A stretch of DNA of 64,000 nt, from NCBI GenBank assembly GCA_049591295.1, contig JBAWEQ010000259.1, positions 25,812 to 89,811 on the forward strand, given 5' to 3'. The notes beneath the pieces are model-generated. The model did no database searches. It was not told the DNA's origin and saw only the letters and a program-made list of their open reading frames with translations. Positions within the stretch are counted from its first letter, which is position 1, and every line of letters begins with the position of its first letter. This document shows, one piece after another, positions 1,026 to 21,239 of the stretch. The DNA comes from Acidobacteriota bacterium. GTDB taxonomy: Bacteria > Acidobacteriota > UBA4820 > DSQY01. A program made the translations under genes and the position numbers.

Positions 1026-1038
1026 TTCCTGCCCTTTC

Positions 1039-2031: not shown

Positions 2032-2739
2032 TCAGGCTCCCCCCATCAGGGGCGCCCCGATGACGTACAGGCCAAGACACAGGATCAGCGCCCCAGCTCC
2101 GCGGCGCAGCCAGAGATTGGCGCTGGCCCATCGGCGGCTTGACAGCAGCCCTCTCACGGCACCCATGGAAACGCCTGCCAGGAGCACGAGCATGCAGTGG
2201 CCGAGGGCGTAAGTCAGCAACAGGCCCCCTCCGTAAAGGACGCTTCCCTTGGCGGCGATGAAGGCCAGGAGCACGGCCAGGATGGGCACCGCGCAGGGCG
2301 TCGAGATGACGCCGAAGAGAATGCCCAGGAGGAAGGCGCCCAGGGCGCCCCGGCTACGAGGCCTGAGGGGCAGCGCCAGGCCCAGGCGCAGCGGGAGCCA
2401 TCCCAGCATGTGCAGCCCCATCACGAGGCAGACTCCCCCGATGAGGTAGGGCCAGAATCGCCCCTGGACGCCGAAGAGCCTGCCCAGCAGGGCCGCGGCT
2501 AGGCCCAGGACGGTGAAGGTCAGGGCCAGCCCCGCCACCATCGAGAGGGCGTAGAGCATGGATCGCCTGAGCGACGAGGCCTGCTCGCTGCCCCCGACAT
2601 AAGCCAGAACGAGCGGGATGCTCACGAGCACGCACGGGTTGCTCGCGGTCAGGAGCCCGCCCAGGAAGGCCGCCCCGAAGGCAAGCACGGGCGCCGTCTC
2701 GATGAGATTCCCGAACTGGCTCAAAAGCCCTTCCATCAA
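2032..2739 (-). CDS. ccdA: CcdA/DsbD-family transmembrane thiol-disulfide electron transporter
   Basis: Polytopic membrane protein with conserved Cys in the first TM segment (ASNPCVL) and in the core (STPCAVP), which is the DsbD_2 architecture. Confidence 0.75.
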   Translation of the reverse strand: MMEGLLSQFGNLIETAPVLAFGAAFLGGLLTASNPCVLVSIPLVLAYVGGSEQASSLRRSMLYALSMVAGLALTFTVLGLAAALLGRLFGVQGRFWPYLIGGVCLVMGLHMLGWLPLRLGLALPLRPRSRGALGAFLLGILFGVISTPCAVPILAVLLAFIAAKGSVLYGGGLLLTYALGHCMLVLLAGVSMGAVRGLLSSRRWASANLWLRRGAGALILCLGLYVIGAPLMGGA

Positions 2740-3158
2740 TGGCTCCGCTCGACACCCATCTTAGTGAAGATCTTCTCCACCTCCTCGAAGGGCAGGTAGC
2801 CCACGTGCCGTTCGAACTCTTTCCCGTCGGCAGTGAAAAAGATCTGCGTAGGGATCATCATGATCTTATACTCCCGGGCCGCCTCAGGCTTCTTGTCCAG
2901 GTCGATGAATTCGATGACCGCCTTGCCTTTGTAGCGGAGCTCGGCCTCCTGGAGAACCGCCACCATCTGCTTGCACGGGATGCACCACGTCTTGCCCAGA
3001 TCCACCATCCGGGGCAGGGCCCGGGGATCCGCCGGCCTCCCGGCGGCCGTCTTCTCCGGCGGAGGCGCCGCCTTCCCGCCCCGAACTCCAGCCATAACCC
3101 ACACCGACATCAGGATCAAAACCAGGAATACCGCACCCGCGACGACTCTCCTCATCAT
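2736..3158 (-). CDS. Membrane-anchored TlpA-like thioredoxin
   Basis: N-terminal TM anchor followed by a thioredoxin fold with a WCIPC active site. Its 4-nt overlap with ccdA indicates an operon. Confidence 0.7.
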   Translation of the reverse strand: MMRRVVAGAVFLVLILMSVWVMAGVRGGKAAPPPEKTAAGRPADPRALPRMVDLGKTWCIPCKQMVAVLQEAELRYKGKAVIEFIDLDKKPEAAREYKIMMIPTQIFFTADGKEFERHVGYLPFEEVEKIFTKMGVERSH

Positions 3159-3478
3159 TGGTCCCTCCTCTTGGTCATTCTCTTCGACGGGACGCCACCA
3201 CCGGCGCAGGGAAGTCCGGCGGCGCGAAGCACGGCCCGCGCGTTTTCATCCGTGATCCGATAGAAGACCATGGCCCCCTCGCGCTCATCCACGATGATGC
3301 CGTGATCCCTCAAGATGGTCAGGTGCCGGGCCAGGGTCGGCTGGGGAACCCGGAGCTCCGGCAGCATGCGGCACGAGCACTGCCGGCCCTCCCGCGCCAG
3401 AAGGCAGAGGATCCTCAGGCGCAACGGATGACCCAGGTCTCGAAATAATCTGGCTTGTGAAGCGAGCGATTCGGCCAC
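3155..3478 (-). CDS. ArsR/SmtB-family transcriptional repressor (GTG start)
   Basis: HTH_5 signature (LRLRILCLL...QPTLARHLTILRDHGII) and a GGAGGG RBS 5 nt upstream. It is the first gene of the operon. Confidence 0.75.
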   Translation of the reverse strand: MAESLASQARLFRDLGHPLRLRILCLLAREGRQCSCRMLPELRVPQPTLARHLTILRDHGIIVDEREGAMVFYRITDENARAVLRAAGLPCAGGGVPSKRMTKRRDQ

Positions 3479-3749: not shown

Positions 3750-4322
3750 TCAGAAACGCACCACCAAGCCGATGCGTGCATCGCCGATGTCCGTCTTGTC
3801 GCTCACGTAACGGACGGAGTCAAAGCCCATATGCGTGTAGGTGAGCTGGAAAGACATGCCCACATTCGGCGTGAAAAAGCGCCGGTAGCCGAAGCCCACC
3901 TCCCCCGCCCACTTGGTCTGAGAAGGCTGATGGACGTACAGGGCACGGCCGCCGTCATGGATCCAGTAGTCCTTCGACTGCATCTCAGCAACGCCCGTGC
4001 CGACGAAGACGAAGAACTGGTCCTTGTCGGTCAGGTTGTAGTCGTACTCGGGGGCGATGGTGAAGGTCCAGATGTTGTTGGTCGTGCTGTTCAGACTGTC
4101 CTTGATCTTGCCGTCCCAGTAGGTGGCGTGGAAGGCGAGCTTCCAGTTGTCGGTGAAGTTGTAGGCGATGCCGGTGCTCGTGTTCCAGTCGCTGTTCATG
4201 AAGTTGCTGGAGGTGTAGTAGCCGCCCTGCAGCTCCCACGTCCAGGGGTTCTTCGGCGCTTGTGCCATGAGCGCCAGGCCGGTCGTCATAAGGGCCAATA
4301 CCGCGATCACGAGCTTTTTCAT
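3750..4322 (-). CDS. Outer-membrane beta-barrel protein (OmpW/OmpA-like porin family)
   Basis: Signal peptide MKKLVIAVLALMTTGLALMAQA, alternating aromatic/hydrophilic beta-strand pattern, C-terminal Phe, and a strong GGAGG RBS. Confidence 0.7.
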   Translation of the reverse strand: MKKLVIAVLALMTTGLALMAQAPKNPWTWELQGGYYTSSNFMNSDWNTSTGIAYNFTDNWKLAFHATYWDGKIKDSLNSTTNNIWTFTIAPEYDYNLTDKDQFFVFVGTGVAEMQSKDYWIHDGGRALYVHQPSQTKWAGEVGFGYRRFFTPNVGMSFQLTYTHMGFDSVRYVSDKTDIGDARIGLVVRF

Positions 4323-5964
4323 GGTCTACCTCCTTGCTTCGAGGCCCAGGGTCTGATCCCCCTTTCATCCGGCGGGACCCTCCTCGGCGGCCCCTGCCGT
4401 GCCTCTCTAAGTCCAAGGTTAGTTCCATCAGGATCTCGCGGCCTTGACGCCCATCAAGTGTGGAGTGAAGCCGGGCGCCCCCCCTAAGGGGCTCGCCCGC
4501 CGGAGCGGCCGGCTTGGCTGGCGCGGGGGCCACCCGGCAGGCCGCGGCTGCGGGGAGGGGCTTGTAGAGCAGGAAGTTGAGGAGGTTGTCCCAGAAGGTC
4601 CAGTTCTTGACGAGCTTCATGTGCTCTTCGCAGATGAAGCCCGAGAGGGCGTAGGGCAGGTCGGTGTGGGGCTCGCACAGGGCGCTTGCGGGCACCTCGG
4701 CCAGCAGGCTCGATTTGGTCACGTCGCCATCGCCTGGTCCGTAAAAGAGACTGCGAAGATCCACCCCCTGCACCGGATGCCGCACCTCCTCCGGCTTGCG
4801 GCGCACCACCCAGCGGCCGCCCTCCCATTCCACCACGAGGCCGCGCAGCGTCGGGGTGCAGTCTCCCCCCAGCAGGAGCGTCTGGATGGAGGCCGACACC
4901 GGTCCGGCCTCCAGGGCCAGGTGAAAAGCCTTCGCCTGGTGGAGAAGGACGCCGAAATGCGCCTGCAGTTCTCGCAGGTACGCGCGGGCCTGCTCCTCGC
5001 CCTCGCCGGGGTGGAGGTCGAGATAGCGCCGGAGGATGCCGGGGCGCTTTCGTGGATCGAAGATGCCCCAGCGCTCCCGCTCCCAGGTTTTCACGTCGTA
5101 GATGTCCAGGGGGGCGGGTTCGCCCGCCGCCGTGAAGAGCACCTGGTCCGAGGGCGAGGGCATCAGCTCGATCATGGAGGGCATGGTGGCGACGAGGTCG
5201 GGCGGGATGCGGGCCATTCCCACGCGGCTCCCGTCGATGAGCGCCAGGAGGCTGGAGACGGCGCCCATGTTGGGCGTCCCCAGCATGATGAGTTTGCGGA
5301 CGTGCGCCGCCCCGGCATCCGTGGGAATGGGCGTCTCCTCCCCCAGCACGTCCTTGCCGCCGTAGAGGATGTAGTAGCGGGCGATGAGGCCGCCCATGGA
5401 GTGGGCTACGATGTCCACCTTGATGGAAGGGTCGTGGCACCGCCCGGCGATGCTGCGGATGAAGGCCGCCAGCCTCCCGGCATTCTCCACGCAGCTCAGG
5501 CGCCAGTCGTAGGCGAAGGGGAAGAAAGGGGCCTCGGGCATGGCCCCAGGCCCCTTTACCATAGTGTAGCCACCGTCCTGGGTGAGCGTCTGCACAATGC
5601 CCGCGTAGACCTCCACCCCGCCGACCTTTTTGATGGAGCCCACGGCCACGAGGTTCGTCTCCTCACCCGGTCCGATGGGCAAGGCCAGACGCATGTCGGC
5701 GGTCGTCGAGAAGAGGTCGCGCACCTTGCCCCACAGGATTTTCCCCGTCTTTGGGTCCACGATCTCCGAGCCCATGAGGCCATGGATGCCCACGAGCGGT
5801 GGCCGGCCCTGCTTCTGTTGAGCCCAGTCGTGGTAGAGGAGCCCCAGGTCGGGCTCGCGGTGTGCGCAGCCCTCGGCGGCCAGGAACAGCAGACAGAGGC
5901 CGATGAACCATCGAACCCCTCTCGATGACCGGACCCGGATCGGGCTTGGCGCCTTGCTCCTCAT
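3985..5964 (-). CDS. Secreted alpha/beta-hydrolase lipase (LCAT/PGAP1-like). The ORF as written reads through into the OMP gene, so the true C-terminus is probably near 4480-4530
   Basis: N-terminal signal peptide, an AHSMGG nucleophile elbow and a GxSxG lipase fold. The final ~160 codons are low-complexity and overlap the intact OMP gene on the same strand by 337 nt. Confidence 0.5.
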   Translation of the reverse strand: MRSKAPSPIRVRSSRGVRWFIGLCLLFLAAEGCAHREPDLGLLYHDWAQQKQGRPPLVGIHGLMGSEIVDPKTGKILWGKVRDLFSTTADMRLALPIGPGEETNLVAVGSIKKVGGVEVYAGIVQTLTQDGGYTMVKGPGAMPEAPFFPFAYDWRLSCVENAGRLAAFIRSIAGRCHDPSIKVDIVAHSMGGLIARYYILYGGKDVLGEETPIPTDAGAAHVRKLIMLGTPNMGAVSSLLALIDGSRVGMARIPPDLVATMPSMIELMPSPSDQVLFTAAGEPAPLDIYDVKTWERERWGIFDPRKRPGILRRYLDLHPGEGEEQARAYLRELQAHFGVLLHQAKAFHLALEAGPVSASIQTLLLGGDCTPTLRGLVVEWEGGRWVVRRKPEEVRHPVQGVDLRSLFYGPGDGDVTKSSLLAEVPASALCEPHTDLPYALSGFICEEHMKLVKNWTFWDNLLNFLLYKPLPAAAACRVAPAPAKPAAPAGEPLRGGARLHSTLDGRQGREILMELTLDLERHGRGRRGGSRRMKGGSDPGPRSKEVDHEKARDRGIGPYDDRPGAHGTSAEEPLDVGAAGRLLHLQQLHEQRLEHEHRHRLQLHRQLEARLPRHLLGRQDQGQSEQHDQQHLDLHHRPRVRLQPDRQGPVLRLRRHGRC

Positions 5965-5997
5965 GGCGGCCCCTCCCTTAACCCCTGCCTCGCTCTC

Positions 5998-6477
5998 CTA
6001 CAGGGGTATCACCAGGGCCACACGAACCGACTCGGTGCCGGGGTTGTGGCGGGCCACACCGCCGTTCGAGTAGTGGAAGACCCCAATCCCCAGCCGGTAC
6101 CCCCTGCCGAGATGATAGAACAGCTCCAGTCCCGACCGGAACTCCAGGTGGCTCCCCAGGTCGTAGTGGTGATCCGAATAGCGGCCGGGGCCGGAGGTCA
6201 GAGACGCGCTCCAGCGGTCTGAAAAAACGTACTGAAGGGTCAGATTGAGCCCCTCGTAATTCTCTAGAGAACTGACGTCCAGCACGCCACCGGCGCCCCA
6301 AGAGAGCTTCCCCCAGGAATGAAAGAGGTGGCGCAGTTCCAGAGACCCGTAAAGGTGCCGGTTCTGGTTCTGGACGTTGCCCACGGCGGGACCCACCAGC
6401 ACGAAGGTCTCTCCCGCCAAGGCCGGCCAGCCTACGATGAACAGCGCGGCCATGAGAAGCCTCTTCATCCTCAGCAT
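5998..6477 (-). CDS. PagL-like outer-membrane lipid A 3-O-deacylase
   Basis: Signal peptide, a small beta-barrel, and a C-terminal FHYSNGG motif containing the His-Ser catalytic pair of PagL. Confidence 0.55.
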   Translation of the reverse strand: MLRMKRLLMAALFIVGWPALAGETFVLVGPAVGNVQNQNRHLYGSLELRHLFHSWGKLSWGAGGVLDVSSLENYEGLNLTLQYVFSDRWSASLTSGPGRYSDHHYDLGSHLEFRSGLELFYHLGRGYRLGIGVFHYSNGGVARHNPGTESVRVALVIPL

Positions 6478-6535
6478 GATCAGCCTCCTTTCTATCCGGC
6501 GCTGCTTTTGGCAAAAAGGCTGGCCGGCTGATGCC

Positions 6536-7813
6536 TTAGGCGAGCCACCCCGCGGCGCCCAGAAGCGCCCCCGCGGCCAGGGGGAAGACGGGATGCACCT
6601 TGAACTTCAGGAGCAACAGGAGGGCCAGGGCCATGAGCGCCCAACCGGGCAGGCCGTGGAGGGCCGAAGGGCCGAGGAGCACGGCCGCACCCACGATGAG
6701 CCCGGCTACGGCGGGCGAGACCCCCGCGAGGAAGTCCTCGAAGCGCGCGTTGCCCTTGAAGCGCACGTATCCCAGCGTGAGCACCGTCATGAGGGCCATG
6801 GCGGGGGCGAAGAGGGCCAGGGTGGCCGCGAGCGCCCCGCTCACGCCGTGCAGATGGTAGCCGGCGAAGGTGGCGAGGACGGCGATCGGGCCGGGCGTGA
6901 GGTTGCTGATGGCTACGCCATCCAAAAATTCGCGGTTGTTGAGCCAGTGGAGCTGGGTCACGAGTTTCTGGTGGAGGATGGGTATGAGGACGAAGCCGCC
7001 CCCGAAGAAGACGAGGCCCACCTTGAGGAAGGTCCAGACCAGGGCCGCCAGGGACGTGCCAGCCGCGGCCTGTGACGCGCCTGGGACGGTGAAGGCCTGA
7101 ATAGGGAGGACGGGAGAGCGGGAGGGTAACTCCTGGGGCATTCCCGGCTCTCCTCCTCCCCTCTCTTCCTCCTTGTGAACAGATCCTCCGCCCGTGCCGC
7201 CCGCCTTCGGGGGGCTTCCGCCGCCCAGCCGCCGATTGCCCGTCAGAAGCCCCAACGCGCCAGCCGTGGCCAGCACGTAGACGGCGTTGACCTTGAGCAG
7301 CGAAAGGGCCAAGGCCAGGAGGGCCACCACCACGGCGGGCCAGCTTCGGAGGGCCTTCCGCCCCAGGGACCAGGCGGCGGCCACGATGAGGGCGATGACC
7401 ACCGGCCCCACACCCTGCACCGCAGCCTGGAGCGAAGGGATGCTGTGGTAGGCGAAGTAGAGCCAGGACAGGAGGATCACGAGAAGCACTGAAGGCACCA
7501 TGAAGGCGCCCGCGCACAGGAGCCCCCCCAACGGCCCGAAGAGCCTGCACCCCACGAAAAAGGCCGTGTTGACCGCGAAGGGGCCAAGGAGCTGGCTGAA
7601 GCCCACGCCGTGCAGGAACTCCTCCGCCGGGAGAAGCCGGCGCTTCAGGACCAGATCCCTCTCCATCAGCGCGATCACCGCCATCCCACCGCCGAAACCA
7701 ATGGCACCGATGATCAGGAAACGGAGCATCAGCGAAGGGAGGGAAGCGCTGGACGCCGCTTGATCGCCCTCGTTCCCTGTCGGAGATTCTGGCTCGGCCT
7801 TCATCCTGCGCAC
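6536..7813 (-). CDS. chrA: Chromate transporter ChrA (duplicated CHR domains)
   Basis: Two homologous halves, each with FGGG motifs (IGFGGGMAVIAL and LVFFGGGFVLIPIL). A 425-aa polytopic membrane protein. Confidence 0.8.
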   Translation of the reverse strand: MRRMKAEPESPTGNEGDQAASSASLPSLMLRFLIIGAIGFGGGMAVIALMERDLVLKRRLLPAEEFLHGVGFSQLLGPFAVNTAFFVGCRLFGPLGGLLCAGAFMVPSVLLVILLSWLYFAYHSIPSLQAAVQGVGPVVIALIVAAAWSLGRKALRSWPAVVVALLALALSLLKVNAVYVLATAGALGLLTGNRRLGGGSPPKAGGTGGGSVHKEEERGGGEPGMPQELPSRSPVLPIQAFTVPGASQAAAGTSLAALVWTFLKVGLVFFGGGFVLIPILHQKLVTQLHWLNNREFLDGVAISNLTPGPIAVLATFAGYHLHGVSGALAATLALFAPAMALMTVLTLGYVRFKGNARFEDFLAGVSPAVAGLIVGAAVLLGPSALHGLPGWALMALALLLLLKFKVHPVFPLAAGALLGAAGWLA

Positions 7814-7817
7814 CCTC

Positions 7818-8912
7818 TCAGCGGCCCATCCGCAAGCTTGTCAGCAGCACGTACTGAATCTGAAAGCGCCACGTGTGGGTGTAGGCTTCGCTCCCACCGC
7901 GCGGCGAGAGGTAGTCGGCCACCAGGCGCAGCGGCACGCGGCGAAAGTCGTAGGTAACGCTGGAGTCCCATTGCCTCAGCGACGGGGCCGAGCCGGCGTG
8001 CAGGTCGGGCGTGAACCATTCGTAGCGCAGGGCGAGGATGATCTGCCGGATCGGCAGGTACGCCACCTGGCCGTAAGCGCCGTGGGCGATGATCTCTCCG
8101 CCCCGGTCGGGGGAGAGCCAGGCGCGGAAGTATTCGGCCTGGCTGCGCACCTTGCCCCAGCCCGCTTCCGCGAAGGCGTTGAGGCGGCTGTCGCGGCCGG
8201 CGAAGCGGCTCGTGAGCTTCTTGCTGAGCCCCGTCAGCTCGGAGGAAAGATTCATGTCCGCGTCGTGCCGGTCCGAGGCAGCCAGCCCCGTTCGCCAGAA
8301 CCACGGCGTGCCGCCGTCCAGCCCCTTCCCGCCGTAGCTGAGGCGCGCCACGCCAAGGGGGCCGTTGCCTTTACCATTCATGTTGGCGCCTTCGCCCTGG
8401 AAGAGGCCGGCGGAGAATTCCCAGCCGCCGTGGTTGAAGTCGCCCTCTACCCCCCGGTCGCGGGCAAAACTCTTGCCGAGGTTTCCGTTCACGACCATGC
8501 GGTTGGTCAGGTCGGTCCGGTCGATGAGGTCGAGGGCCGAATCGGGCTCAAAGCGTTCAAGGCCGAAGGGGGGCACGAACTGGCCCACCTTGAAGGCGAG
8601 GCCGCGGGATTCCGGCACCACGACGTAGGCGTCTTGAAGGTAGATCTGGTCGTCGGTGGAGCTTGAGAGGTTGGTCTTGTAGACGAATTGCACGTGGTAG
8701 TGGAGGCCGTCCTGGGGACCACCGTCCAGCATGGCCTTGAAGCGGCGGATCGCCCACGCATCATCCCCCTTGCTCGGATCGGTGTAGCGGAACTGGATGT
8801 AGGAGCTGAGCACGGGCAGGTAGGGCGGGGAGGCCGTCGCGCCGTCGGCGAACACCGCCGTTCCGCTGACGGTGAGGACAAGGAGAACGACCAGGCCGAT
8901 GCGCGATCTCAT
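7818..8912 (-). CDS. Phosphate/oxyanion-selective porin (OprO/OprP family)
   Basis: Internal start MRSRIGLVVLLVLTVSGTAVFA is a signal peptide, and the beta-barrel carries Porin_O_P-like motifs. The ATG overlaps the stop codon of the upstream CDF gene (ATGA). Confidence 0.65.
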   Translation of the reverse strand: MRSRIGLVVLLVLTVSGTAVFADGATASPPYLPVLSSYIQFRYTDPSKGDDAWAIRRFKAMLDGGPQDGLHYHVQFVYKTNLSSSTDDQIYLQDAYVVVPESRGLAFKVGQFVPPFGLERFEPDSALDLIDRTDLTNRMVVNGNLGKSFARDRGVEGDFNHGGWEFSAGLFQGEGANMNGKGNGPLGVARLSYGGKGLDGGTPWFWRTGLAASDRHDADMNLSSELTGLSKKLTSRFAGRDSRLNAFAEAGWGKVRSQAEYFRAWLSPDRGGEIIAHGAYGQVAYLPIRQIILALRYEWFTPDLHAGSAPSLRQWDSSVTYDFRRVPLRLVADYLSPRGGSEAYTHTWRFQIQYVLLTSLRMGR

Positions 8913-9832
8913 ACGTGATCCTCCCAATGGCCCAGCAGTTCTGTCTCCCCGTAGCCCGTCACTTCGGGCTCCAGCGTTGCGTGGGTGATGGCCCACTCCT
9001 CGTGCAGGTGCTCCCGGATCTCGTCGAAGAGCTTCTCGGCGGCGCTGGCCGCCATGTCTTGCTCCAAGGCCACGTGGGCCGTGAGCAGGCGCTGACCGGG
9101 GCCGTTCTGCCAGACGTGGAGGTGGTGGAGCCGCACCGTAGGGAAGGCCCTGCCCACGGCCTGGGCGATGGCCTCGGGGTCGGCGCCGGATGGCGCCCCC
9201 TCCATGAGCGTGGAGACGGTCTCCCATACGAGTGACAGGGCGCTGCGCAGGACGGCGAGGCCCACCAGGAGCGCCGCCGCCGGGTCCACGTAGGGCCCCA
9301 TGCGCGTGTGGGCCAGGAGAGCGGCGATGACCACCGCAAGAGAGGCCAGCGCGTCCTGGGCCATATGGAGAAAGGCGCTGCGCACGTTGACGTCGTCTTT
9401 GTCATGGTGTTTCAACAGGAAGACCGACCCCACGTTGGCGAAGAGCGCCACGAGCGCCACGGCAAGCATGAGCCCCTGCTGGACCGGCTCCGGGTGCGCA
9501 AAGCGCACGAAGGCCTCGCGGGCGATGAGAACGGTGATGGCGATGAGGACGACGGCGTTCGAGAGGGCCGCGAGCACCTCCGCCCGCTTGAAGCCGTAGG
9601 TGTGGCGCGCCGTCGGCGCGCGCCGCCCGAAGCGCCGGGCCCAGAGGGCCAGCACCACCGCCGCCACGTCGCTCAGGTTGTGAGCCGCGTCCGACAGAAG
9701 CGCCAGGCTGCCTGATAAGAGGCCGCCGAAGAATTCGGCCAGCGTGATGGCCCCGTTGAGGGCCGCGCTCGCCCAGAGTCTCCGGTCCATGAAGCCGTTT
9801 TCGGGGATCTCGTGGCTGTGGTTATGACTCAT
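8909..9832 (-). CDS. Cation diffusion facilitator family transporter (CzcD/ZitB-like)
   Basis: His-rich N-terminus (MSHNHSHE), six TM helices with an HNLSD motif, and a C-terminal cytoplasmic domain (HLHVWQ). Confidence 0.8.
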   Translation of the reverse strand: MSHNHSHEIPENGFMDRRLWASAALNGAITLAEFFGGLLSGSLALLSDAAHNLSDVAAVVLALWARRFGRRAPTARHTYGFKRAEVLAALSNAVVLIAITVLIAREAFVRFAHPEPVQQGLMLAVALVALFANVGSVFLLKHHDKDDVNVRSAFLHMAQDALASLAVVIAALLAHTRMGPYVDPAAALLVGLAVLRSALSLVWETVSTLMEGAPSGADPEAIAQAVGRAFPTVRLHHLHVWQNGPGQRLLTAHVALEQDMAASAAEKLFDEIREHLHEEWAITHATLEPEVTGYGETELLGHWEDHV

Positions 9833-9863
9833 GATCCGGCGCCCCTCCTGGAATCCCGTCTCC

Positions 9864-9882
9864 GATTTCTGCTTTTCGAATT
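9864..9882. promoter_or_regulatory. TTTTCGAATTCCGAATTTT motif upstream of the CDF gene, candidate ArsR/SmtB-type operator
   Basis: Shares a TCCGAAT half-site with the perfect palindrome at 3499-3516 and sits about 30 nt upstream of the CDF start codon. Confidence 0.3.
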
Positions 9883-9895
9883 CCGAATTTTCCGC

Positions 9896-10507
9896 CTACC
9901 CCTTGTACCCCGAGCACGGGATGCAGTACGGCTTGCCGTCCTTCGTGCGCACGTAGCGTTCGAAAACGAGTTCGCCGCAGCCCGTGCAGATGGCGCTGGC
10001 GAAGGAGCCCTTGGGCGGCTGGTAGTGGAAGTCGGGCCGCTCGGCCACGGAGTAGATCGTCTCACCGGGCAGGCTCAGGCCCCAGTCGATGACCTGCTGG
10101 GTGACGGCCTCCGGGATGCCCGAGGGCTCGATTCCCTTTTTCCGGTAAGTGAAGAATTCGAATCCGCCCATCTCCTTGAGAAACGCGGGTTTCAGGTTGT
10201 AGCGGACGGGGGTCTTGCCTGGATACCAGAAGGTCGCCGCGAGCTTGCCCCAGTAGGTTCTCTCGATGAGAGTCTTGCCGAAAGTGGCGCCCGTGGCGAT
10301 CTGGATGCCGTCCATCAGGCACGTCTGGGGATGCCCCTCGCCCAGCTCGCAGACGACGTGAAGGGCGTGATCCTTCTCCCGCTCGACGCCGAGCTTCTCG
10401 ATCGCCAGGATGCCCATGCGGTAGCCCAACGGCATAAAGGGGCACTTGTGGCCGTGGAACTGGAAAGCCCAGTCGGGTGGCACGAAGTGTTGGTTGGCTT
10501 GAGTCAT
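9896..10507 (-). CDS. FmdE/FwdE-domain protein with C-terminal zinc ribbon
   Basis: FHGHKCPFMPLG motif of the FwdE family, plus a C-terminal CTGCGE...CIPC double CxxC. Confidence 0.65.
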   Translation of the reverse strand: MTQANQHFVPPDWAFQFHGHKCPFMPLGYRMGILAIEKLGVEREKDHALHVVCELGEGHPQTCLMDGIQIATGATFGKTLIERTYWGKLAATFWYPGKTPVRYNLKPAFLKEMGGFEFFTYRKKGIEPSGIPEAVTQQVIDWGLSLPGETIYSVAERPDFHYQPPKGSFASAICTGCGELVFERYVRTKDGKPYCIPCSGYKG

Positions 10508-10540
10508 GATGTAGTCCTCCTTGCTTGATTCTTGGGACGA

Positions 10541-10561
10541 CCCGACGGCCCCTCACCGTGA
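10541..10561. repeat. Perfect 10-bp inverted repeat (GGCCCCTCAC c GTGAGGGGCC), an intercistronic stem-loop
   Basis: Exact palindrome between the AhpD-like gene stop and the FmdE gene RBS. No U tract follows it, so it is more likely an mRNA processing/stability element than a terminator. Confidence 0.5.
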
Positions 10562-10578
10562 GGGGCCTTCCCCCCGGG

Positions 10579-10953
10579 TCAGCGCGCCAAATCCTTGAGC
10601 AGTTCCTCGGCGAACCCGAAGGTCGCAGAGGCCATCAAGTGCCGGGTGATGCGCACGGCGTCGAGGATCTCCGCCTGCGTGGCCCCCGCCTCCCGGGCGA
10701 TGTGGGCCTGTGATCGCGCGCAGAGCGCATCTCCGCGGCCGAGAGCCGCCGCCGTCGCGATGAGGTGGCGGTACTTGGACGGAATGGTGCTGGCCTCCCG
10801 GTTCACGCTCTGGGCCGAATTCATGCCCGTCGCGACGAGCAGATCGGGCGCGAGCCGGTGCAGGAGATCCCCCCACGCCGGGGCGGTGGCTCCCATCTTC
10901 CCTTTCATCATGCCGAGAACCTGGTCGGCGGTCGGCGGCGTCTTCATCTCCAT
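10579..10953 (-). CDS. Carboxymuconolactone decarboxylase / AhpD-like family protein
   Basis: 124-aa all-alpha protein with CMD-family signature residues (ALCARSQAH). Confidence 0.55.
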   Translation of the reverse strand: MEMKTPPTADQVLGMMKGKMGATAPAWGDLLHRLAPDLLVATGMNSAQSVNREASTIPSKYRHLIATAAALGRGDALCARSQAHIAREAGATQAEILDAVRITRHLMASATFGFAEELLKDLAR

Positions 10954-11061: not shown

Positions 11062-14000
11062 TCAGGAATCTGTCTTCCTCCCAAATCTCCCAGCCACCTT
11101 GGTTTGCAGCGTGTCGAACAGTTCGTAGAACACGGGAACGTAGATCAGCGTCAAGAAGGTGGAGACCGTGAGGCCGCCGATGGCCACCACCGCGAGAGGG
11201 CTGAGCCGCTCCAGGCCGATGGCCCACTGCAGGGCGATGGGAAGCATGCCCACGGCGGTGCCGACGGCGGTCATGAGGATGGGGCGGGTCCTGACTCTTA
11301 CCGAGCCCACCAGGGCGTCGTGGCGGCTCTCCCCGCGAGCCCGCGCCTCCAGGATGAAGTCGATGAGCAGGATGGAGTTCTTCACCACGATGCCCGCCAG
11401 CAGGATCATTCCCATGAAGGAGGGCATGCACGAGTGCTTGCCCGTCAGCAGCATGGCCCACGCGGCGCCGATGATGCCAAGAGGGATGGCCACCATGATG
11501 GTGAGCGGGTGCAGGAAGGACTTGAAGGCCGGCACGAGGGAGAAGTAGAGCAGGATCAGGCCCAGGAGCAGCGCCTTCATGAGGGCCGAAAAGGCTTCAT
11601 CCATGGTCTTGCGCTCGCCCTCGTCCTGAATGGTATACCCCGGCGGCAGCTTCAGCCCCTTGAGCGCGGCTGCCACGTTGTCGTTGATGTGGGTCACGGC
11701 CGCGGTGCTGCGGTAGCCGAGCACGTCCACCGTCTCCTGAAGGTTCTGCCGGGTGTGGAGCGTGGGGACGAAGTCCCGCTCCACGCGGCCCAGGGAGGAG
11801 AGCGGGATGGGGCCGCGCGGGGTGAGGATGGGCAGGGTCGTCAGGTCCTGCGGGTTCTGGCGCCGCTGGGCCCGGGCCTGCACCCAGACGGCGAAGGAGT
11901 CCTGGCCGGGCACCCGGAAGAGCGTGGCCGGAAAACCCTTCACCTGGGCGCTGACTTGGGCCGCGACCATGGCCGCGTCGGTGCCGTAGATGGCCATGCG
12001 GTCGGCGTCGGGGAAGAACCGGTATTCCAGGCGGTCCAGGGTCCACGTCGGGACCACGGCGGTGAGGCCTCCGACCGTCTTGACCCGCTTCGCCACCTCC
12101 TGCTGGAGCTGGGACAGCACCTTGGGATCGGGACCCGAGATCATGAGGTCCACGGTGGAACGGATGGTCGAGAGAGGGGTGGCGCCATAGTCGAACGCGG
12201 CCGGGAAGCGGATCCCGGGGATCTTGAGAAGCCGGTCCTCCACCGCCTTCTCGATCTGCCACATCGTCTCCTTGCGCTGGAAGCGGTTCACGAGGTGCAC
12301 GGTAATGAAGGCCTGCTGGGGGTTTCGGCCGGAGCCGAAGGAGAGGATGCCCGGTTCGGAGCCAAGGGTGGACGAGATCATGGTCACGCCAGGCTGCTTC
12401 TGGATCGCGCCCTCCACCTTCGAGAGCAGGGCCTCCGTCTCCTCCAGGGAGGTGTTGGGGTAGGCCTCGAAGGTGACGCGGAAAATGCCCGTGTCCATGG
12501 GCGGCATGAGGTCCCGCCCGATGAGGGGCATGAGCACCCGGCCCGTCAGCACGAGCAGCATCATGGCCGGAAGGATGAAGAAGATTTTGTGCCCTAGGGC
12601 GAAATCCACGGCCGAAACGAAGAACTCCTGGATGCCATGGAGGATCTTGCCCGTCACGATCTGGTCGAGCTTCAGCTCCCACTTCCATCGCTCCACGCGA
12701 CCGCCGAGCCTGAGGATGAAGGGGGCCAGGATGGGCAGGATGGTCACGGACACGATGTACGAGGCGACGAGTGCGATGGAGAGCGTGAGGCTCAATGGCC
12801 TCAAGACCGTCTGGACAAAGCCGCCGATGAAGATGATGGGGAGGAGTACCACCACGGTGGCGTAAGTGCCCGAGAGGATGGCGAGCATGACCTCCTGCGT
12901 GCCGCCGATGGTCGCCTCCCGGATGTCCTTGCCGAGCTTGTGGTAGTGCCGCTCGATGTTCTCCAGGACGACGATGGCGTCATCCAGGAGCATGCCTACG
13001 CCGAGGATGACCCCCGTCAGCGTCACCAGGTCGAACTCGAAGCCGAAGAGCCACATGAAGGCGAAGGTGATGAGGTAGGTGAAGGGGATGGAGATGCCCG
13101 CCAGCATCATGCCGCGCACGTCCGCGAGGAAGAGAAAGATGACGATGATCGTCATGAGGATGGCGTCGCGCAGGGCGTCCACCATGTTGGAGACGCTCGT
13201 GTGGATCAGTTCGCCCTGCGTGTCGGCGATGGCGAAGTGAATCCCGGGGTACTGCCGCTCAAGGGTGGGCAGTTGGGCCGTCACCGAGGCGATGGTGGGC
13301 AGGGCGTAACCCGACAGGGCCCGCTGGATGTTGATGCCGATGGCCGCCGCCCCGTTGCCGTGGAAGGCCGACAGCCGCTCCTGGATGCTTCTCTCCACCG
13401 TGGCCACGTCGCGGAGGTAGATGGGCGGTCCGGCCCCCGCGCTCACGACGACGTCGCTCACCTCCTCGGGCCGCTTGAACTCCCCCTCGTTCTTGAGGAG
13501 AATGTGGCTCTGGTCCGTGACGAGAAGGCCCTCGGGAGTATTGCGGTTCCAGGCGTTCAGCGCCTGCACGACCTGGCCTGGGCTCAGGTGGTAGGCCTGG
13601 AGCTTGTTCGGGTCCAGTGTGACGCGGATGACCGGCTGGTAAGCCCCGAATACCTCCACGTTGGCCACGTCGGGAAGGCGCAGCAGCGCCTCCTTGATGG
13701 GGTTGTCGGCGAGCTGGCGGATCATGGAGAGGTCCAGGTGGGAGCCTTCCTTGGGCGTCAGCGCGAGGGTGAGGACCGCCGGCGTGGCCGAGGAGACCTT
13801 GTAGACCTGGAAGGGGCGGATGTCCGGGGGCAGGAGGGGCCGGATCTTGTTGAGCGAGTTCGAGACGTCCGTGGCCGCAGAGTCGAGGCCCTTCCTGTAG
13901 CGGAACTCGGCCATGACCACCGAGACCTCGTCGTTGGAGGTGGAGGTCACGCGGCGCACGAGTTCGACGGTCTTCAGCTCCTTCTCGATGACCCGGCTGA

Positions 14001-14187
14001 CGTCCGAATCCACGTCGTCGGCCGAGGCGCCGGGCCAGACGGTGACCACGGCGATCTGGGGCCGCTCGCTGTCCGGGAAGAGGTTGACGGGGAGCTTGAA
14101 GAAGCCCACCACGCCCACCACCGCCAGCAGCAGGACGATGGAGAGGAGCAGGTGGGGCTTCTTGACGTAGCTTTCCACCAGGCGCAT
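11062..14187 (-). CDS. RND efflux transporter permease subunit (AcrB/CzcA superfamily)
   Basis: 1041 aa with 12 TM helices and two large periplasmic loops. The N-terminus reads MRLVESYVKKPHLLLSIVLLLAVVG...FPDSERPQI. Confidence 0.85.
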   Translation of the reverse strand: MRLVESYVKKPHLLLSIVLLLAVVGVVGFFKLPVNLFPDSERPQIAVVTVWPGASADDVDSDVSRVIEKELKTVELVRRVTSTSNDEVSVVMAEFRYRKGLDSAATDVSNSLNKIRPLLPPDIRPFQVYKVSSATPAVLTLALTPKEGSHLDLSMIRQLADNPIKEALLRLPDVANVEVFGAYQPVIRVTLDPNKLQAYHLSPGQVVQALNAWNRNTPEGLLVTDQSHILLKNEGEFKRPEEVSDVVVSAGAGPPIYLRDVATVERSIQERLSAFHGNGAAAIGINIQRALSGYALPTIASVTAQLPTLERQYPGIHFAIADTQGELIHTSVSNMVDALRDAILMTIIVIFLFLADVRGMMLAGISIPFTYLITFAFMWLFGFEFDLVTLTGVILGVGMLLDDAIVVLENIERHYHKLGKDIREATIGGTQEVMLAILSGTYATVVVLLPIIFIGGFVQTVLRPLSLTLSIALVASYIVSVTILPILAPFILRLGGRVERWKWELKLDQIVTGKILHGIQEFFVSAVDFALGHKIFFILPAMMLLVLTGRVLMPLIGRDLMPPMDTGIFRVTFEAYPNTSLEETEALLSKVEGAIQKQPGVTMISSTLGSEPGILSFGSGRNPQQAFITVHLVNRFQRKETMWQIEKAVEDRLLKIPGIRFPAAFDYGATPLSTIRSTVDLMISGPDPKVLSQLQQEVAKRVKTVGGLTAVVPTWTLDRLEYRFFPDADRMAIYGTDAAMVAAQVSAQVKGFPATLFRVPGQDSFAVWVQARAQRRQNPQDLTTLPILTPRGPIPLSSLGRVERDFVPTLHTRQNLQETVDVLGYRSTAAVTHINDNVAAALKGLKLPPGYTIQDEGERKTMDEAFSALMKALLLGLILLYFSLVPAFKSFLHPLTIMVAIPLGIIGAAWAMLLTGKHSCMPSFMGMILLAGIVVKNSILLIDFILEARARGESRHDALVGSVRVRTRPILMTAVGTAVGMLPIALQWAIGLERLSPLAVVAIGGLTVSTFLTLIYVPVFYELFDTLQTKVAGRFGRKTDS

Positions 14188-14189
14188 GG

Positions 14190-15278
14190 CTACCTCCCCC
14201 GGGGGGCCAGCGGCGTTCCGGCGGTCAGGGCCATGAGTTCGCTAGGCAGGCCCGTCACCAGGACGTCTCCCGGCTGAATGGCGCCGCTCACCGTGGCCTC
14301 GGAGCCGCTTTCGCCCGTCACCGCGACGGGCACGGGATCGCTTTTGCCATCCTTCAAGCGGATCACGAGGGTCTCGCCGAGCCCCTGGAGGAGAGCCGAG
14401 GAGGGCACCACGAGACCGCTCTTGGGGGTGGAGGCATAGTGCGCGGCGAGGGTGGCACCCGGCTGGAGTCCGAATGGAGCCTGGGGCAGATCGGTTTCCA
14501 CCGTCCCCAGGTGCGCCGCGTCGAGCGCGGGATAGATTCGTGAGGTTTGGGCGGTCAGGCTCTGGCCTGCGCCGGAAAAGGTCACGGCGTCACCCGCCCG
14601 GAGCGCCGCCAGGGTCTCCTGGGAGAGCTTGGAGATGAGCTTCACCGAACCGGGGACCTGAAGGGTATAGAGCGGTTTTCCGGGAGCGGCCAGATCGCCG
14701 GGCTCCACGAGCCGCGCCGTCACCACGCCCGAGTAAGGGGCGGGCACGTTGGCGTAGCCGCGGAAGGTCCTGACGCTCTGGAGGGCCTTCTCGGCGCCGA
14801 CCTCGGCGGCCTTAACGGCCGCGAGCTGCGCCCCGCTGACGTCGAAGGCCTGTTTGGCGACGGCCTGGTTGTCGAAGAGGATCTTGTCGCGGTCGTAGAT
14901 GGCTTGTTGTTTGGCCAGATCCTCCTTCGCTGCGGAGAGGCGGGCCTGGGCCGCCTGGACGGAGTCCTCCAGCACGCTGGGGTCGATGCGGGCCATGACC
15001 TCGCCCTTCTTGACCGCGTCGCCCTCGCGGAAGCGGACCTCCAGGAGCGCCCCAGACACCTGGGCCGAAACCGTGGCCGAGGTTTCCGAGACGACGAGGG
15101 CCACGGTGTCCACCGCGCTTCCCACGGAACCGTCCTTGACCACCGCCGTGTTCACCGGAATCGGGGGATTGGGCGGCGGCAGCAGATGCCTCAGGACGTA
15201 TCGCTTATGAACGATGACGGCCGCCCCGGCGGCTATGACCGCCACGACGATCAGGATGGCGAGCAGCTTCTTATTCAT
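14190..15278 (-). CDS. RND efflux periplasmic adaptor (membrane fusion protein, HlyD family)
   Basis: N-terminal TM anchor, coiled coil, lipoyl and beta-barrel domains. Lies 3 nt from the RND gene. Confidence 0.8.
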   Translation of the reverse strand: MNKKLLAILIVVAVIAAGAAVIVHKRYVLRHLLPPPNPPIPVNTAVVKDGSVGSAVDTVALVVSETSATVSAQVSGALLEVRFREGDAVKKGEVMARIDPSVLEDSVQAAQARLSAAKEDLAKQQAIYDRDKILFDNQAVAKQAFDVSGAQLAAVKAAEVGAEKALQSVRTFRGYANVPAPYSGVVTARLVEPGDLAAPGKPLYTLQVPGSVKLISKLSQETLAALRAGDAVTFSGAGQSLTAQTSRIYPALDAAHLGTVETDLPQAPFGLQPGATLAAHYASTPKSGLVVPSSALLQGLGETLVIRLKDGKSDPVPVAVTGESGSEATVSGAIQPGDVLVTGLPSELMALTAGTPLAPRGR

Positions 15279-16608
15279 GATCTCCTCCCCGTGCGGTCAC
15301 GAAGGCCAGGTAGTCGACGGCGCTCTGGTAGGCGTAGAGGCCCCGCCAGTAGGCCGTTTCCCCCGCCAGCTCCTCTCCCCTCGCGGCCAGGTAGTCCTCC
15401 ATCTTCCCCGTTCCCTGCTCCAGCTTTAGGTGCTCTACGCGGGCCACCTCCCGGCCCAGACCCCGCTGCGCCTTCCCCGCCTGGTAGAGCGCCTTGGCGG
15501 CTTCGAGGCGGCCCTGGGCGTCGGCCACCTGGGTGGTGATTTCCAGCTCCTTGGCGCGCTCCCGCTGCTTGGCTGCCAAGAGAGTGGCATCCGCCTCCTG
15601 GATGGCGTAGACGCGGCTCAGGCCGTTGAACAGTGGCACCTTCAGCATGAGGGTCCACTCCCTCGTGTCGAGGGGATCCCTGAGCGACGGCGCGTCGTTG
15701 CGGAGGTAGGTGGCCTGCAGGACGAGCTGCGGCGAGAAGGCCTCCAGCGCCAGGTGCTTTTTGTGTTCGAAGATGCGCGTGGCGTCCCGTGAGGCGAGCA
15801 GGTCGCCCCGTCCCGAAAGGGCTGCCCGGGTATTGGCATCCGGAGACGCGGCGGGCGCCGGTGGCTCTCCCTCGACCTCCTCCAGGTCGTAGCCTCCGGC
15901 GGGAGGCTCCCGGCCCATGAGAGCCGCGAGGGTGGCCTGGGCCGTTTCCGACTGGGCGGCGAACTCGGCCACCTGCGCCTCGGCCCCGCGCAGAGCGTAG
16001 GTGACCTTGGCCGCGTCCACGGGAGCCCACGCCCCGACCTTGACCTTGAGCTGCGCGTCGGACTCATCCTTCTCCAGCGCCGCCCGATAGGCCTGCGCCG
16101 CTTCCATGGCGTGCTGGACGATGAGCGCGTTACGGTAGGCCGCGCGGACGTTGTAGCGGATCTGGTCCCGCGTGAAGAGGGCCAGGTGCTCGGAGGCGTT
16201 TCGCGAGAGCCTCGCGATGCGGTCGCCCTCGTGGAGCCCCCCGGCCGCCAGGAGTGGGACCTGCCAGGTGAGGCCGTAGTGGACCTGGTTGCGGTCCCAC
16301 GGAAGCTGGCTCATGCCCAGGGCGGGAACCACGAAGAGCTCCTCGGCCATGGGCACGACGATGCGGTCTCGCTCGAAGTGGTTGTAGACGCCGACCACAT
16401 CCAGCTCGCCGAAGTGGCGCCCGAAGGTCTCCGCCGTTCGCTTTCCGGCCGCCACCGCATCCAGCTTCGCCGCCTGCAATGCGGGATTGGCTGAGAGCGC
16501 CGTGCTTTCGGCTTGCGCAAGGCTCAACGGCTCGGCCGCATGAACCGGCATACAAATCACCGCGGCCAGCAGGCACGCGCCCGCCGCCGCCCTCCAGACT
16601 CTGTTCAT
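15271..16608 (-). CDS. TolC-like outer-membrane efflux protein
   Basis: Signal peptide and the duplicated OEP repeat architecture. Overlaps the MFP gene. Confidence 0.8.
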   Translation of the reverse strand: MNRVWRAAAGACLLAAVICMPVHAAEPLSLAQAESTALSANPALQAAKLDAVAAGKRTAETFGRHFGELDVVGVYNHFERDRIVVPMAEELFVVPALGMSQLPWDRNQVHYGLTWQVPLLAAGGLHEGDRIARLSRNASEHLALFTRDQIRYNVRAAYRNALIVQHAMEAAQAYRAALEKDESDAQLKVKVGAWAPVDAAKVTYALRGAEAQVAEFAAQSETAQATLAALMGREPPAGGYDLEEVEGEPPAPAASPDANTRAALSGRGDLLASRDATRIFEHKKHLALEAFSPQLVLQATYLRNDAPSLRDPLDTREWTLMLKVPLFNGLSRVYAIQEADATLLAAKQRERAKELEITTQVADAQGRLEAAKALYQAGKAQRGLGREVARVEHLKLEQGTGKMEDYLAARGEELAGETAYWRGLYAYQSAVDYLAFVTARGGDHE

Positions 16609-16952
16609 GGCCCCTCCTGCTTCAGGCGTGTCCTGCCCTGATCCGGTCCTACTATTTTGCTGCAGTTTAGGATGGCCGACGCTCTCGGGTCAACGACCTG
16701 GTAGAAGACCTTCGCCCCCTCGCGGCGGTCCGCCACGACCCCGTGGTCCTTCAGGATTCGCAAGTGCCGCGAGAGCGTCGGCTGGTCCGCGCGGCAAGAG
16801 TGCGCCAGGCTGCAGACGCACTCCTTCTCCACCGACAGCAGCCGGATCACGATGGCCAGCCGCAGCGGATGCGACAGATCCCCGAAGAGACGCGCCAGGC
16901 TCTCCCGGCTCCCCGCCCCCTGAAGCTGTCGTGGCCATATATCCATAACCAT
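16605..16952 (-). CDS. ArsR/SmtB-family metalloregulator (alternative longer start at 17000)
   Basis: HTH_5 domain with an ECVCSLAHS metal-site motif like SmtB/CzrA/CadC. A GGAG RBS lies before the MVMDIW start. Its 4-nt overlap with tolC indicates an operon. Confidence 0.65.
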   Translation of the reverse strand: MVMDIWPRQLQGAGSRESLARLFGDLSHPLRLAIVIRLLSVEKECVCSLAHSCRADQPTLSRHLRILKDHGVVADRREGAKVFYQVVDPRASAILNCSKIVGPDQGRTRLKQEGP

Positions 16953-17045
16953 ATGTTCTCCGTCCTTGAAAAAGGCGCCCAAGCGCGCCTTCGGTCTCAA
17001 GGTGCGCCTCGGCGGCGCCGGGCGCCTTGACGCCCGTCAAGAAGG

Positions 17046-20148: not shown

Positions 20149-20416
20149 CGCCCCCTCGCCTGGAAAGTTTGCCCATCAGGGTCTATCGAGACTTTCTGCC
20201 GGCTCCCTGGGGTCCATCCGGTTGTGCGGCTATCGTAACACCAATGGCCTCTGCCCACTCAAGGCGGGGCCTTGGCCCCAAATCCCGCGATGCCATTTCG
20301 CCCGTGGGAGCGCCGCCCCGGCGCGACAGGCCGTTTACGAGGCGCCGGTCATGGTTCTGAGGGCGGCACGACTCTGCCTACTAGCCTTACTCCCCTTGTC
20401 CCCCGTCCCCTGTCCC

Positions 20417-21127: not shown

Positions 21128-21239
21128 CCGGCTCCTTTCCCTTTGGCATATCTCCCAATCCCGCGGCGCGTCGGGAGCCTCCTCCCGGCCCGCGCGCGAC
21201 CTCCCGCCTCGCTCCGGATTGGCAGGGAGCCGTCCGGCT

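Follow-up and report, generated by a model that had tools for sequence, protein, structure and literature searches.

The closest described relatives of the protein considered here belong to the FmdE family (PF02663), for which Axelrod et al. (2010; PMC2954224) solved the two-domain architecture with TA1109 from Thermoplasma acidophilum (PDB: 2GVI). In a 64-kb stretch of an Acidobacteriota metagenome-assembled genome (MAG; contig JBAWEQ010000259.1, positions 25,812-89,811), which in its whole length is referred to below as the window, the gene at 9896-10507 on the minus strand encodes a protein of this family whose assignment to the TA1109 (2GVI) type is well supported. The alpha+beta core of 2GVI contains a solvent-accessible metal site formed by His16, His18, Cys20, and Cys61, with all four coordination positions occupied by protein ligands, and zinc was present at this N-terminal site even in crystal forms obtained without added zinc. 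The corresponding site of a second structure (PDB: 2GLZ) is mixed Zn/Ni. An unknown ligand was found covalently attached to Cys61 of 2GVI, 1.8 Å from the sulfur. The C-terminal treble-clef finger docks on the core of the partner subunit, the dimer being domain-swapped, and contributes to a cleft of 30 x 10 Å; transcriptional regulation was named among the possibilities for this finger (PMC2954224).

The same authors noted that the majority of PF02663 genes adjoin metal-ion transporters, that about 13 of 208 family genes are located in fmd operons, and that fusions of molybdopterin-binding domains to FmdE occur (PMC2954224). A role in metal transport is therefore not a new idea, and the interpretation given in the preliminary description of this DNA, a short annotation made from the letters alone, restates that hypothesis of 2010. 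What the present analysis adds, mainly on related loci, is the FmdE-TauE module, the arsenic/metal islands and enterobacterial plasmids in which it is found, and the loss of TauE in the window. The transcriptome of Acidiplasma shows an FmdE homologue at strongly reduced levels on sulfur, pyrite, and arsenopyrite as compared with ferrous iron. Searches of the accessible literature, which leaves most subscription journals out of scope, returned no functional study of FmdE/FwdE in connection with zinc, efflux, arsenic, or TauE, and no paper naming TauE with FmdE or FwdE. The earlier statement that FwdE-domain proteins outside methanogens have no assigned function thus holds, and a paper from 2026 concurs, giving the specific function of FmdE as undetermined even in the methanogen fmd operon. 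PF02663 has been structure-known and function-unknown for about 20 years, and its members in non-methanogens are regularly mis-annotated as methanogenesis subunits, as annotations of the source records show; the window provides a clean example of the protein inside an apparently ArsR-controlled efflux operon.

The open reading frame (ORF) at 9896-10507 is a genuine gene. Translation of the window gives an ATG start and 203 amino acids followed by a stop codon, and a Shine-Dalgarno sequence, AAGGAGG (10516-10522, minus strand), has the ATG 8 nt downstream; its GGAG is kept in the alignment of relatives of the gene. The GC content by codon position is 0.57/0.44/0.88, the pattern of real genes (window GC, 67%). 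The protein is 100% identical to the product annotated as "FmdE family protein" on an NCBI record of an Acidobacteriota MAG, and the gene order CMD-FmdE-CDF is present in two independent Logan assemblies. Pfam analysis placed PF02663 at residues 17-145 with 79.3 bits (cutoff 22.9). Both the ORF with its FmdE domain and its position between an AhpD-like (CMD) gene at 10579-10953 and a CDF gene at 8909-9832 were thus correctly given in the preliminary description.

A single-sequence search matched 2gvi_A over residues 7-197 (E value 4.9e-48), and a profile of 26 orthologues, searched against the PDB, returned 2GVI with an E value of 3.9e-56. The AlphaFold2 monomer model (pLDDT 87.8) has, by Foldseek, a query-normalized TM-score of 0.77 to 2GVI and 0.53 to 2GLZ. 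In the PDB up to April 2026, neither the profile search nor the fold search revealed a newer or functionally annotated FmdE-like structure. TA1109 (Q9HJ63_THEAC) and the protein of the window agree in length (203/204 amino acids), in their two domains and in 39% of residues over 198 columns. The alpha+beta core at the N-terminus, residues 17-145 (10073-10459, minus strand), as delimited by Pfam and the 2GVI alignment, includes the motif FHGHKC with H18, H20, and C22, the residue C63, and the triad D66/Q69/T72; F17-H18-G19-H20-K21-C22 and C63 correspond to His16, His18, Cys20, and Cys61 of 2GVI. The C-terminal Cys4 treble-clef zinc finger, residues 167-198 (9914-10009, minus strand), was recognized by a sub-cutoff Pfam match, the 2GVI alignment and fold matches. 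Its pairs C174-x2-C177 and C195-x2-C198 align with Cys174, Cys177, Cys195, and Asp198 of 2GVI, so that the fourth finger ligand is Asp in TA1109 and Cys here. The CxxC...CxxC pattern reported earlier is present, yet the domain is treble-clef/LIM-like as in 2GVI and not a zinc ribbon; the finger has high pLDDT and gave weak Foldseek matches to LIM domains (E value 1.3-6, probability at most 0.8). Residues 167-198 also resemble zf-dskA_traR (PF01258) with 23.4 bits, below the cutoff of 24.9, and the N-terminal 160 residues are FmdE core; membership among the DksA/TraR regulators was rejected.

All eight metal-ligand positions of 2GVI align in the protein and are invariant in 26 of 26 orthologues (66-91% identity). 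The same orthologues keep D66, Q69, and T72, the second motif, which lies at the dimer interface, and it is because both the ligands and this D/Q/T motif align and are invariant that we consider membership in the TA1109-type subfamily well supported. Further invariant residues that are not ligands surround the site: E57-G58-H59-P60, D66, Q69, T72-G-A-T-F, K78, and W86-G-K-L. The EGHPQ stretch before C63 differs from TA1109 and is specific to the bacterial orthogroup. The protein lacks a signal sequence and is predicted to be cytoplasmic. It is probably a domain-swapped dimer; the dimer and the Zn/Ni occupancy are carried over from the crystal structures of the homologues. Since TA1109 is itself without an assigned function, the match to 2GVI provides a structure and not a function.

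Other systems are more distant. The single-domain protein DSY1837 (B8FYU2_DESHY; PDB: 2GLZ) shares the core fold and the FHGHxC plus Cys metal site, whereas it lacks the zinc finger and forms another dimer; in being single-domain it is nearer to a second FmdE paralog in the window (1039-1758). FmdE/FwdE of the methanogen formylmethanofuran dehydrogenase operons share PF02663, but the gene described here has no adjoining fmd/fwd catalytic gene and its host is not a methanogen; its neighbours are efflux genes, and fmd/fwd catalytic subunit genes are not recurrent in 80 related loci either. The nickel chaperone CooT (PF10133) is likewise a small cytoplasmic metal-binding dimer with Cys/His ligands that is encoded beside the machinery it serves, and it is found fused to FmdE with the zinc finger in two clusters. 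ArsD, a metallochaperone serving the exporter ArsA, is a comparable soluble Cys/His metal binder. Neither CooT nor ArsD has a sequence or fold relation to the FmdE core, and metal transfer has been demonstrated for chaperones of the CooT/ArsD type but for no FmdE protein. YeeD, a small cytoplasmic Cys protein of the TusA type, serves the YeeE thiosulfate permease in uptake. The combination of such a protein with a multi-pass permease recalls the FmdE-TauE pairs of related loci described below, although the folds and families are others and the FmdE-TauE pairing is absent from the window.

Homologues were collected by a word-index search, which gave 1090 proteins at E values ≤ 1e-5; the whole FmdE family comprises about 1500 clusters at 50% identity. 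The orthogroup of the gene, with 398 confirmed matches in GTDB contigs taken as one genome per species, is conserved to an unusual degree and widely dispersed: its members, 60-91% identical, come from Acidobacteriota, Chloroflexota, Bacillota, Myxococcota, Beta- and Gammaproteobacteria, and a number of lineages of archaea. Neighbours were counted in the 80 best loci from species-level genomes (individual loci are designated L001, L002, etc.) after all ORFs had been clustered and the clusters named by Pfam, and the density within 1.5 kb of FmdE was controlled by that in the outer flanks (3-8 kb) of the same loci. The tightest conserved partner of the orthogroup is a TauE/SafE (TSUP, PF01925) permease, not CDF or RND. 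TauE is present in 65 of the 80 loci, as compared with ArsR in 29, CDF in 27, RND and ACR3 in 26 each, and ArsP in 23. The density of TauE per 100 kb is 23.9 within 1.5 kb and 0.4 at 3-8 kb, a 60-fold difference; the values are 7.4 and 0.5 (15-fold) for CDF and 8.3 and 2.0 (4-fold) for RND. In 48 loci TauE and FmdE share a strand and are less than 400 nt apart, and the stop codon is often overlapped; examples are L001 8591-9553 and L054 7204-7962. FmdE is followed directly by CDF in seven other loci, and the CMD gene is directly upstream of FmdE in eight. ACR3, ArsC, and ArsR are evenly spread around FmdE, which makes them island mates rather than immediate partners. Further recurrent neighbours include an ArsP_1 permease with a Thioredoxin_3 partner, DGC, OsmC, CcdA with thioredoxin, and ChrA.

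The co-occurrence of FmdE with CDF and RND that the preliminary description had asked about is thus locally enriched and non-random in the 80 related loci. Its view that the link to metal exporters supports a metal-trafficking role stands as far as the enrichment of CDF and RND goes; it has to be qualified in that TauE/SafE is the tighter partner and the islands are of the arsenic type too. The TauE partners have no conserved Cys, while N55, R68, H194, and K233 (numbering of L054) are conserved.

Twelve loci carry a second, divergent paralog of FmdE with the zinc finger, which scores about 125 bits against the query and is placed in tandem with the orthologue, before TauE; they include L015 (1767-2384), L030, L049, L057, L061, L064, L071, L074, and L076. 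As the solved FmdE proteins are domain-swapped dimers, heterodimers are conceivable in these loci. An ORF of 799 amino acids in L037 that appears to fuse FmdE with CDF was rejected as an artefact, the middle 265 residues being an out-of-frame reading of TauE in a high-GC long-read MAG.

No TauE (PF01925) gene is present in the whole 64-kb window. The spacer between FmdE and CDF (9833-9895) has 63 nt with a GC content of 0.56 and is the site at which L001 has a TauE/SafE gene of about 0.95 kb. Comparison by blastn with L001 (8620-9566) showed 88-89% identity on both sides, while about 947 nt with TauE in L001 are represented by 53 nt in the window. Because nearly all close relatives have TauE, the window most simply lost it by a clean deletion. 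A separate loss of TauE is seen in L003, where (GGTGAGTR)n repeats are found in the spacer and FmdE stays beside CDF.

On the minus strand of the window, the order ArsR-OMF-MFP-RND-CMD-FmdE-CDF-porin-ChrA is observed with distances between consecutive genes of -8 (overlap) to 108 nt, and this spacing suggests that the string from ArsR to ChrA is one co-transcribed operon. Acidobacteriota relatives share the order ArsR-OMF-MFP-RND-CMD-FmdE-...-CDF-porin-ChrA. The first gene (16605-17000, minus strand) encodes an ArsR/SmtB regulator (HTH_5; NF033788, 73.1 bits, cutoff 55) with the alpha3 thiolate motif ECVCSLAHSC and without the alpha5 site; on the BigR model it reaches 49.7 bits (cutoff 155). 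It is followed on the same strand by an outer-membrane efflux protein (OMF; OEP/TolC-like; 15271-16608; PF02321, 82 bits), by the periplasmic adaptor of the RND system (MFP; 14190-15278; HlyD_D23/HlyD_3; TIGR01730, 161.7 bits, cutoff 94.9), and by the RND permease (11062-14187; PF00873, 678 bits). The permease is HAE1/Mdt-like (AcrB-type), with LLDDAIVVLEN in transmembrane helix 4 (TM4). Heavy-metal RND (HME) pumps carry the TM4 motif DFG...DGA...VEN. The best NCBIfam model for the permease is the multidrug RND_permease_2 (594 bits), and it reaches 373.9 bits on the CusA/CzcA model TIGR00914 (cutoff 701), so that the heavy-metal-efflux (CzcA/CusA) class was rejected for this pump. Of the metal-efflux operon with RND and CDF that had been proposed earlier, RND, CDF, and ArsR are present, but since the TM4 motif and the best scores are of the multidrug type, family features lend no support to the label "metal-efflux RND", although the operon partners are metal-related. 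In about 17 loci, mostly acidobacterial, an orthologous RND pump remains in linkage with FmdE.

The remaining genes of the string are also on the minus strand. The CMD/AhpD-like small protein (10579-10953; PF02627, 35.3 bits) has the motif CxxSxxH with a single Cys. The CDF cation exporter (8909-9832; PF01545, 159 bits, plus ZT_dimer) is CzcD/ZitB-like, with HxxxD in TM2 and TM5 and a His-rich N-terminus; it scores 258.6 bits on TIGR01297 (cutoff 82) and 224.6 on the ZitB model (cutoff 408). As neither the ZitB nor the DmeF equivalog cutoff is reached, its metal was not assigned. A porin O/P-like outer-membrane protein follows (7818-8912; PF07396, 37.4 bits); its start was taken from the gene call in L081 and overlaps the CDF stop by 4 nt. 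The last gene encodes a protein of the ChrA chromate-transporter family (6536-7813; PF02417, 271 bits; TIGR00937, 212 bits, cutoff 172).

Beyond the orthogroup, the FmdE family accompanies importers as well as exporters. Another subfamily of FmdE with the zinc finger (L084/L085 6001-9659; L087 4001-7722; L086 2215-5326) is represented in Moorella and Desulfothermobacter by genes placed directly upstream of metal-chelate importers of the Peripla_BP_2/FecCD/ABC type. In one genome such a gene has a CbiQ/ABC module on one side and a CbiA-like ATPase on the other, and a fourth example has no adjoining transporter. CooT, with its N-terminal Cys2, is fused to FmdE and the zinc finger in two clusters (proteins P0259 and P0271; locus L083, 2330-3133), and two OsmC genes flank the fusions. 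A fusion of TrmO_N to FmdE also exists. Two further composite proteins, P0261 (an FmdE fragment with a ChrA fragment) and P0141 (a DsbD_TM fragment with an FmdE fragment), were set aside as likely frameshift gene calls and taken as evidence of adjacency only, not of fusion. TauE also follows a 41%-identical FmdE that is carried by IncHI2A plasmids of Citrobacter, Klebsiella, and Enterobacter. The pair is found between insertion sequence (IS) elements in L089, the Citrobacter freundii plasmid p112298-catA (record 195552-196925), and on 22 other plasmids. Encoded in its vicinity are a CoA-disulfide-reductase-like protein of 552 amino acids, a BigR-like ArsR, and a second TauE accompanied by LysR; this plasmid context hints at sulfur stress rather than metals.

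Based on these comparisons, we hold with about even confidence that the protein of the window is a cytoplasmic soft-metal-binding accessory, or chaperone, of membrane exporters. The ArsR-type repressor with its CVC thiolate sensing site would control the RND pump, FmdE, CDF, the porin, and ChrA together. The His2Cys2 site would capture a soft divalent metal of the Zn/Cd/Co/Ni class in the cytoplasm, the cleft being formed by both subunits and closed by the Cys4 finger packing on the partner subunit. The protein might then hand the metal to the adjacent permease, or report it to the permease, acting as donor, buffer, or gate. The permease served would be TauE/SafE, often together with CDF, in most relatives and CDF in this genome. 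Metal capture in vivo, the hand-off or gating, and the choice of metal are here read from sequence and by analogy. The metal-handling role is supported by the His2Cys2 Zn/Ni site of the solved homologues, by the CooT-FmdE fusions, and by the adjacency of importers of the FecCD and CbiQ/O types. The weight of the fusions is small because they amount to only 2 clusters among the 120 matches listed. If the chaperone function proposed here were true, it would define a new accessory class in metal homeostasis and correct a widespread annotation.

Several observations weigh against this proposal. No member of the family has an experimental function, and a Zn site with four protein ligands could have a structural role only or belong to an active site. 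The covalent ligand on the Cys of 2GVI that is equivalent to C63 (PMC2954224) is more in keeping with an enzyme or carrier than with a simple chaperone. The RND pump is outside the heavy-metal class, and the CooT-FmdE fusion is rare. The TauE/SafE family is named for sulfite export, and a metal cation is not an obvious substrate for permeases that lack a conserved Cys and have conserved Asn, Arg, His, and Lys. Moreover, the wider islands are of the ArsR/ACR3/ArsC/ArsP/ArsM type as much as of the divalent-metal type; with ACR3, ArsC, and ArsM among their genes, the relevant toxicant could be a metalloid.

A broader formulation, which we put forward tentatively as possible, is that TA1109-type proteins with the zinc finger are an overlooked, horizontally mobile class of cytoplasmic metal(loid)-binding subunits that dock on unrelated permeases (TauE/SafE, CDF, and ArsP for export, FecCD/ECF for import) and load or gate them, that the TauE partners export metals or metalloids instead of sulfite, and that the module of the window was re-wired to CDF after the loss of TauE. 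Across many phyla the FmdE-TauE pair travels in arsenic/metal islands, and it has reached IncHI2 plasmids of clinical Enterobacteriaceae; the Citrobacter and Klebsiella plasmids represent a tractable system in which the function of FmdE and the substrate of TauE/SafE could be addressed jointly.

The prominence of TauE, which is the tightest neighbour by count and density and frequently overlaps FmdE at the stop/start codons, would also be explained if FmdE were the cytoplasmic partner of TauE/SafE anion exporters. A sulfur species or thiophilic oxyanion, such as sulfite, persulfide/thiosulfate, or thio-arsenic, would then be carried on Cys63, and the metal would be structural or catalytic. The conserved Arg, Lys, His, and Asn of the TauE partners and their lack of a conserved Cys would fit this explanation, as would the adduct on the Cys61 sulfur of 2GVI; genes for OsmC and for thioredoxin are recurrent in the loci, and the plasmid pair is near a CoA-disulfide-reductase-like protein and a BigR-like ArsR. 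We nevertheless judge this explanation, the main alternative to the chaperone, to be unlikely. The neighbour clusters that recur in the 80 loci include CDF, ACR3, ArsC, and ArsP but not rhodanese, sulfide:quinone oxidoreductase (SQR), persulfide dioxygenase, or TusA/DsrE, and the ArsR of the window is far below the BigR cutoff. FmdE persists beside CDF without TauE both in the window genome and in L003, and other subfamilies accompany metal importers and CooT. With the partner TauE lost, the protein of the window would on this account be an orphan, a remnant, or re-used.

The same adduct, together with the solvent-accessible site and the 30 x 10 Å cleft built from both subunits, is what might be expected of a zinc-dependent enzyme in which C63 provides a zinc-activated thiolate, the cleft accommodates a substrate such as a small thiol or an organo-metal(loid), and the neighbouring permeases export the product. 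The many invariant non-ligand residues around the site would fit such an activity, and an identity of 60-91% across phyla and archaea is typical of a constrained active site; fusions to TrmO_N, and those to molybdopterin-binding domains in the 2010 report, point in the same direction. However, filling of all four coordination positions by the protein is unusual for catalytic zinc, the fold search gave no likeness to a characterised enzyme, and the context suggests no candidate substrate. We regard a catalytic function as improbable.

It is very improbable, in our estimate, that the protein is a metal-responsive regulator whose DksA/TraR-like C4 finger binds RNA polymerase, DNA, or RNA: apart from the weak zf-dskA_traR match and the suggestion of Axelrod et al. 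that the finger might regulate transcription, the finger is below the Pfam cutoff and in 2GVI is docked on the partner core as part of the cleft, the operon has its own ArsR, and neither Pfam nor the AlphaFold2 model reveals a helix-turn-helix or coiled coil. A maturation factor for a Mo/W enzyme, as assumed for methanogen FmdE/FwdE and with an incidental position in the operon, is scarcely credible, for the family name, the few fmd-operon members (about 13 of 208), and MoeA a few kb from FmdE in one unrelated locus stand against an Acidobacteriota MAG as host, an exporter gene order conserved across phyla, and the finding of no formylmethanofuran dehydrogenase (Fmd/Fwd) catalytic subunit or molybdopterin enzyme among the scanned ORFs of the window or the recurrent neighbours of the 80 loci.

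The spacer between CMD and FmdE contains a perfect palindrome, GGCCCCTCAC-C-GTGAGGGGCC, at 10547-10567, of which 0.04 would be expected by chance in the sequence search. The perfect 10-bp stem-loop reported earlier at 10541-10561 is therefore real as a palindrome, but its position is 6 nt off, and in the mRNA the stem has 9 bp and the loop 3 nt, with no U-tract after it. The folding energy of the spacer is unexceptional (z -0.6 to -1.5, i.e., only 0.6-1.5 standard deviations better than shuffled sequences). A terminator scan detected none at 10547-10567, and an intrinsic (Rho-independent) terminator was rejected because, although the hairpin is GC-rich, no T-run follows it. L001, a 91% identical relative, keeps the stem through one compensatory change from A-U to G-C, and in more distant relatives this place is occupied by other GC-rich hairpins. 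The CMD stop codon is thus repeatedly followed by a hairpin, which could be an element of transcript stability or processing. Tandem (GTGAGGA)n heptamers and CTCC-rich tracts form long hairpins upstream of FmdE in L005 (about 7880-7950) and in the CMD-FmdE spacers of L002 and L007; in L007 a U-run comes after the spacer hairpin.

The first FmdE paralog of the window, at 1039-1758 on the minus strand, is a single-domain protein with the motif FHGHPC (PF02663, 48.1 bits, residues 76-205). A phmmer search of all window ORFs with the protein at 9896-10507 found no paralog; this one was located by a search for the HGHxC motif instead. Its N-terminus has RR and a hydrophobic segment, "SRRAIQAFLGLAAVLLGV...", and it is predicted to be exported or membrane-anchored. 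Upstream, on the same strand (2032-3478), Pfam and model matches identify ArsR (3155-3478), thioredoxin (2736-3158), and CcdA/DsbD_TM (2032-2739), and downstream an ArsP_1 permease (3-1076, minus strand; PF03773, 212.6 bits) with the motif FCSCSAVP runs off the window end. The earlier account of two FmdE proteins, the other one secreted and in an ArsP operon, is borne out by this ArsR-Trx-CcdA-FmdE-ArsP order and the predicted export signal. The thioredoxin and CcdA/DsbD_TM proteins encoded before the paralog suggest an electron conduit by which its Cys ligands would be kept reduced outside the cytoplasm; the DsbD_TM protein gave weak matches to the TsoB and ArsG models.

Between the two FmdE genes, the listed ORF at 5978-6514 (minus strand) is in the wrong frame (GC at third codon positions, GC3, 0.42). 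The real gene there, 5998-6477 on the minus strand, encodes 159 amino acids with a GC3 of 0.81 and resembles the PagL lipid A deacylase. With an LCAT/lipase-like gene (3985-5964) and an outer-membrane beta-barrel protein (3750-4322), it makes up a tail of the operon concerned with outer-membrane remodelling. On the other side of the operon, the region 17125-22067 (minus strand) encodes a histidine kinase of 1007 amino acids with GAF/PAS domains, a regulator of the Crp family (20417-21127), and a genuine arsenite methyltransferase, ArsM (21240-22067, minus strand; NF008823, 343.9 bits, cutoff 263; Methyltransf_31), so that the metal(loid) island extends over about 22 kb. Farther along, a radical SAM/SPASM protein with an N-terminal PqqD domain, similar to maturases of ribosomally synthesized and post-translationally modified peptides (RiPPs), is encoded at 29043-30389 (minus strand) and is adjoined by large ORFs without Pfam matches at 25948-27831 and 30451-32028. 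Divergent paralogs of M3 oligopeptidase F (38222-40132, minus strand; 43515-45422, plus strand) flank a gene similar to the D-component of 2-hydroxyglutaryl-CoA dehydratase (41052-42365).

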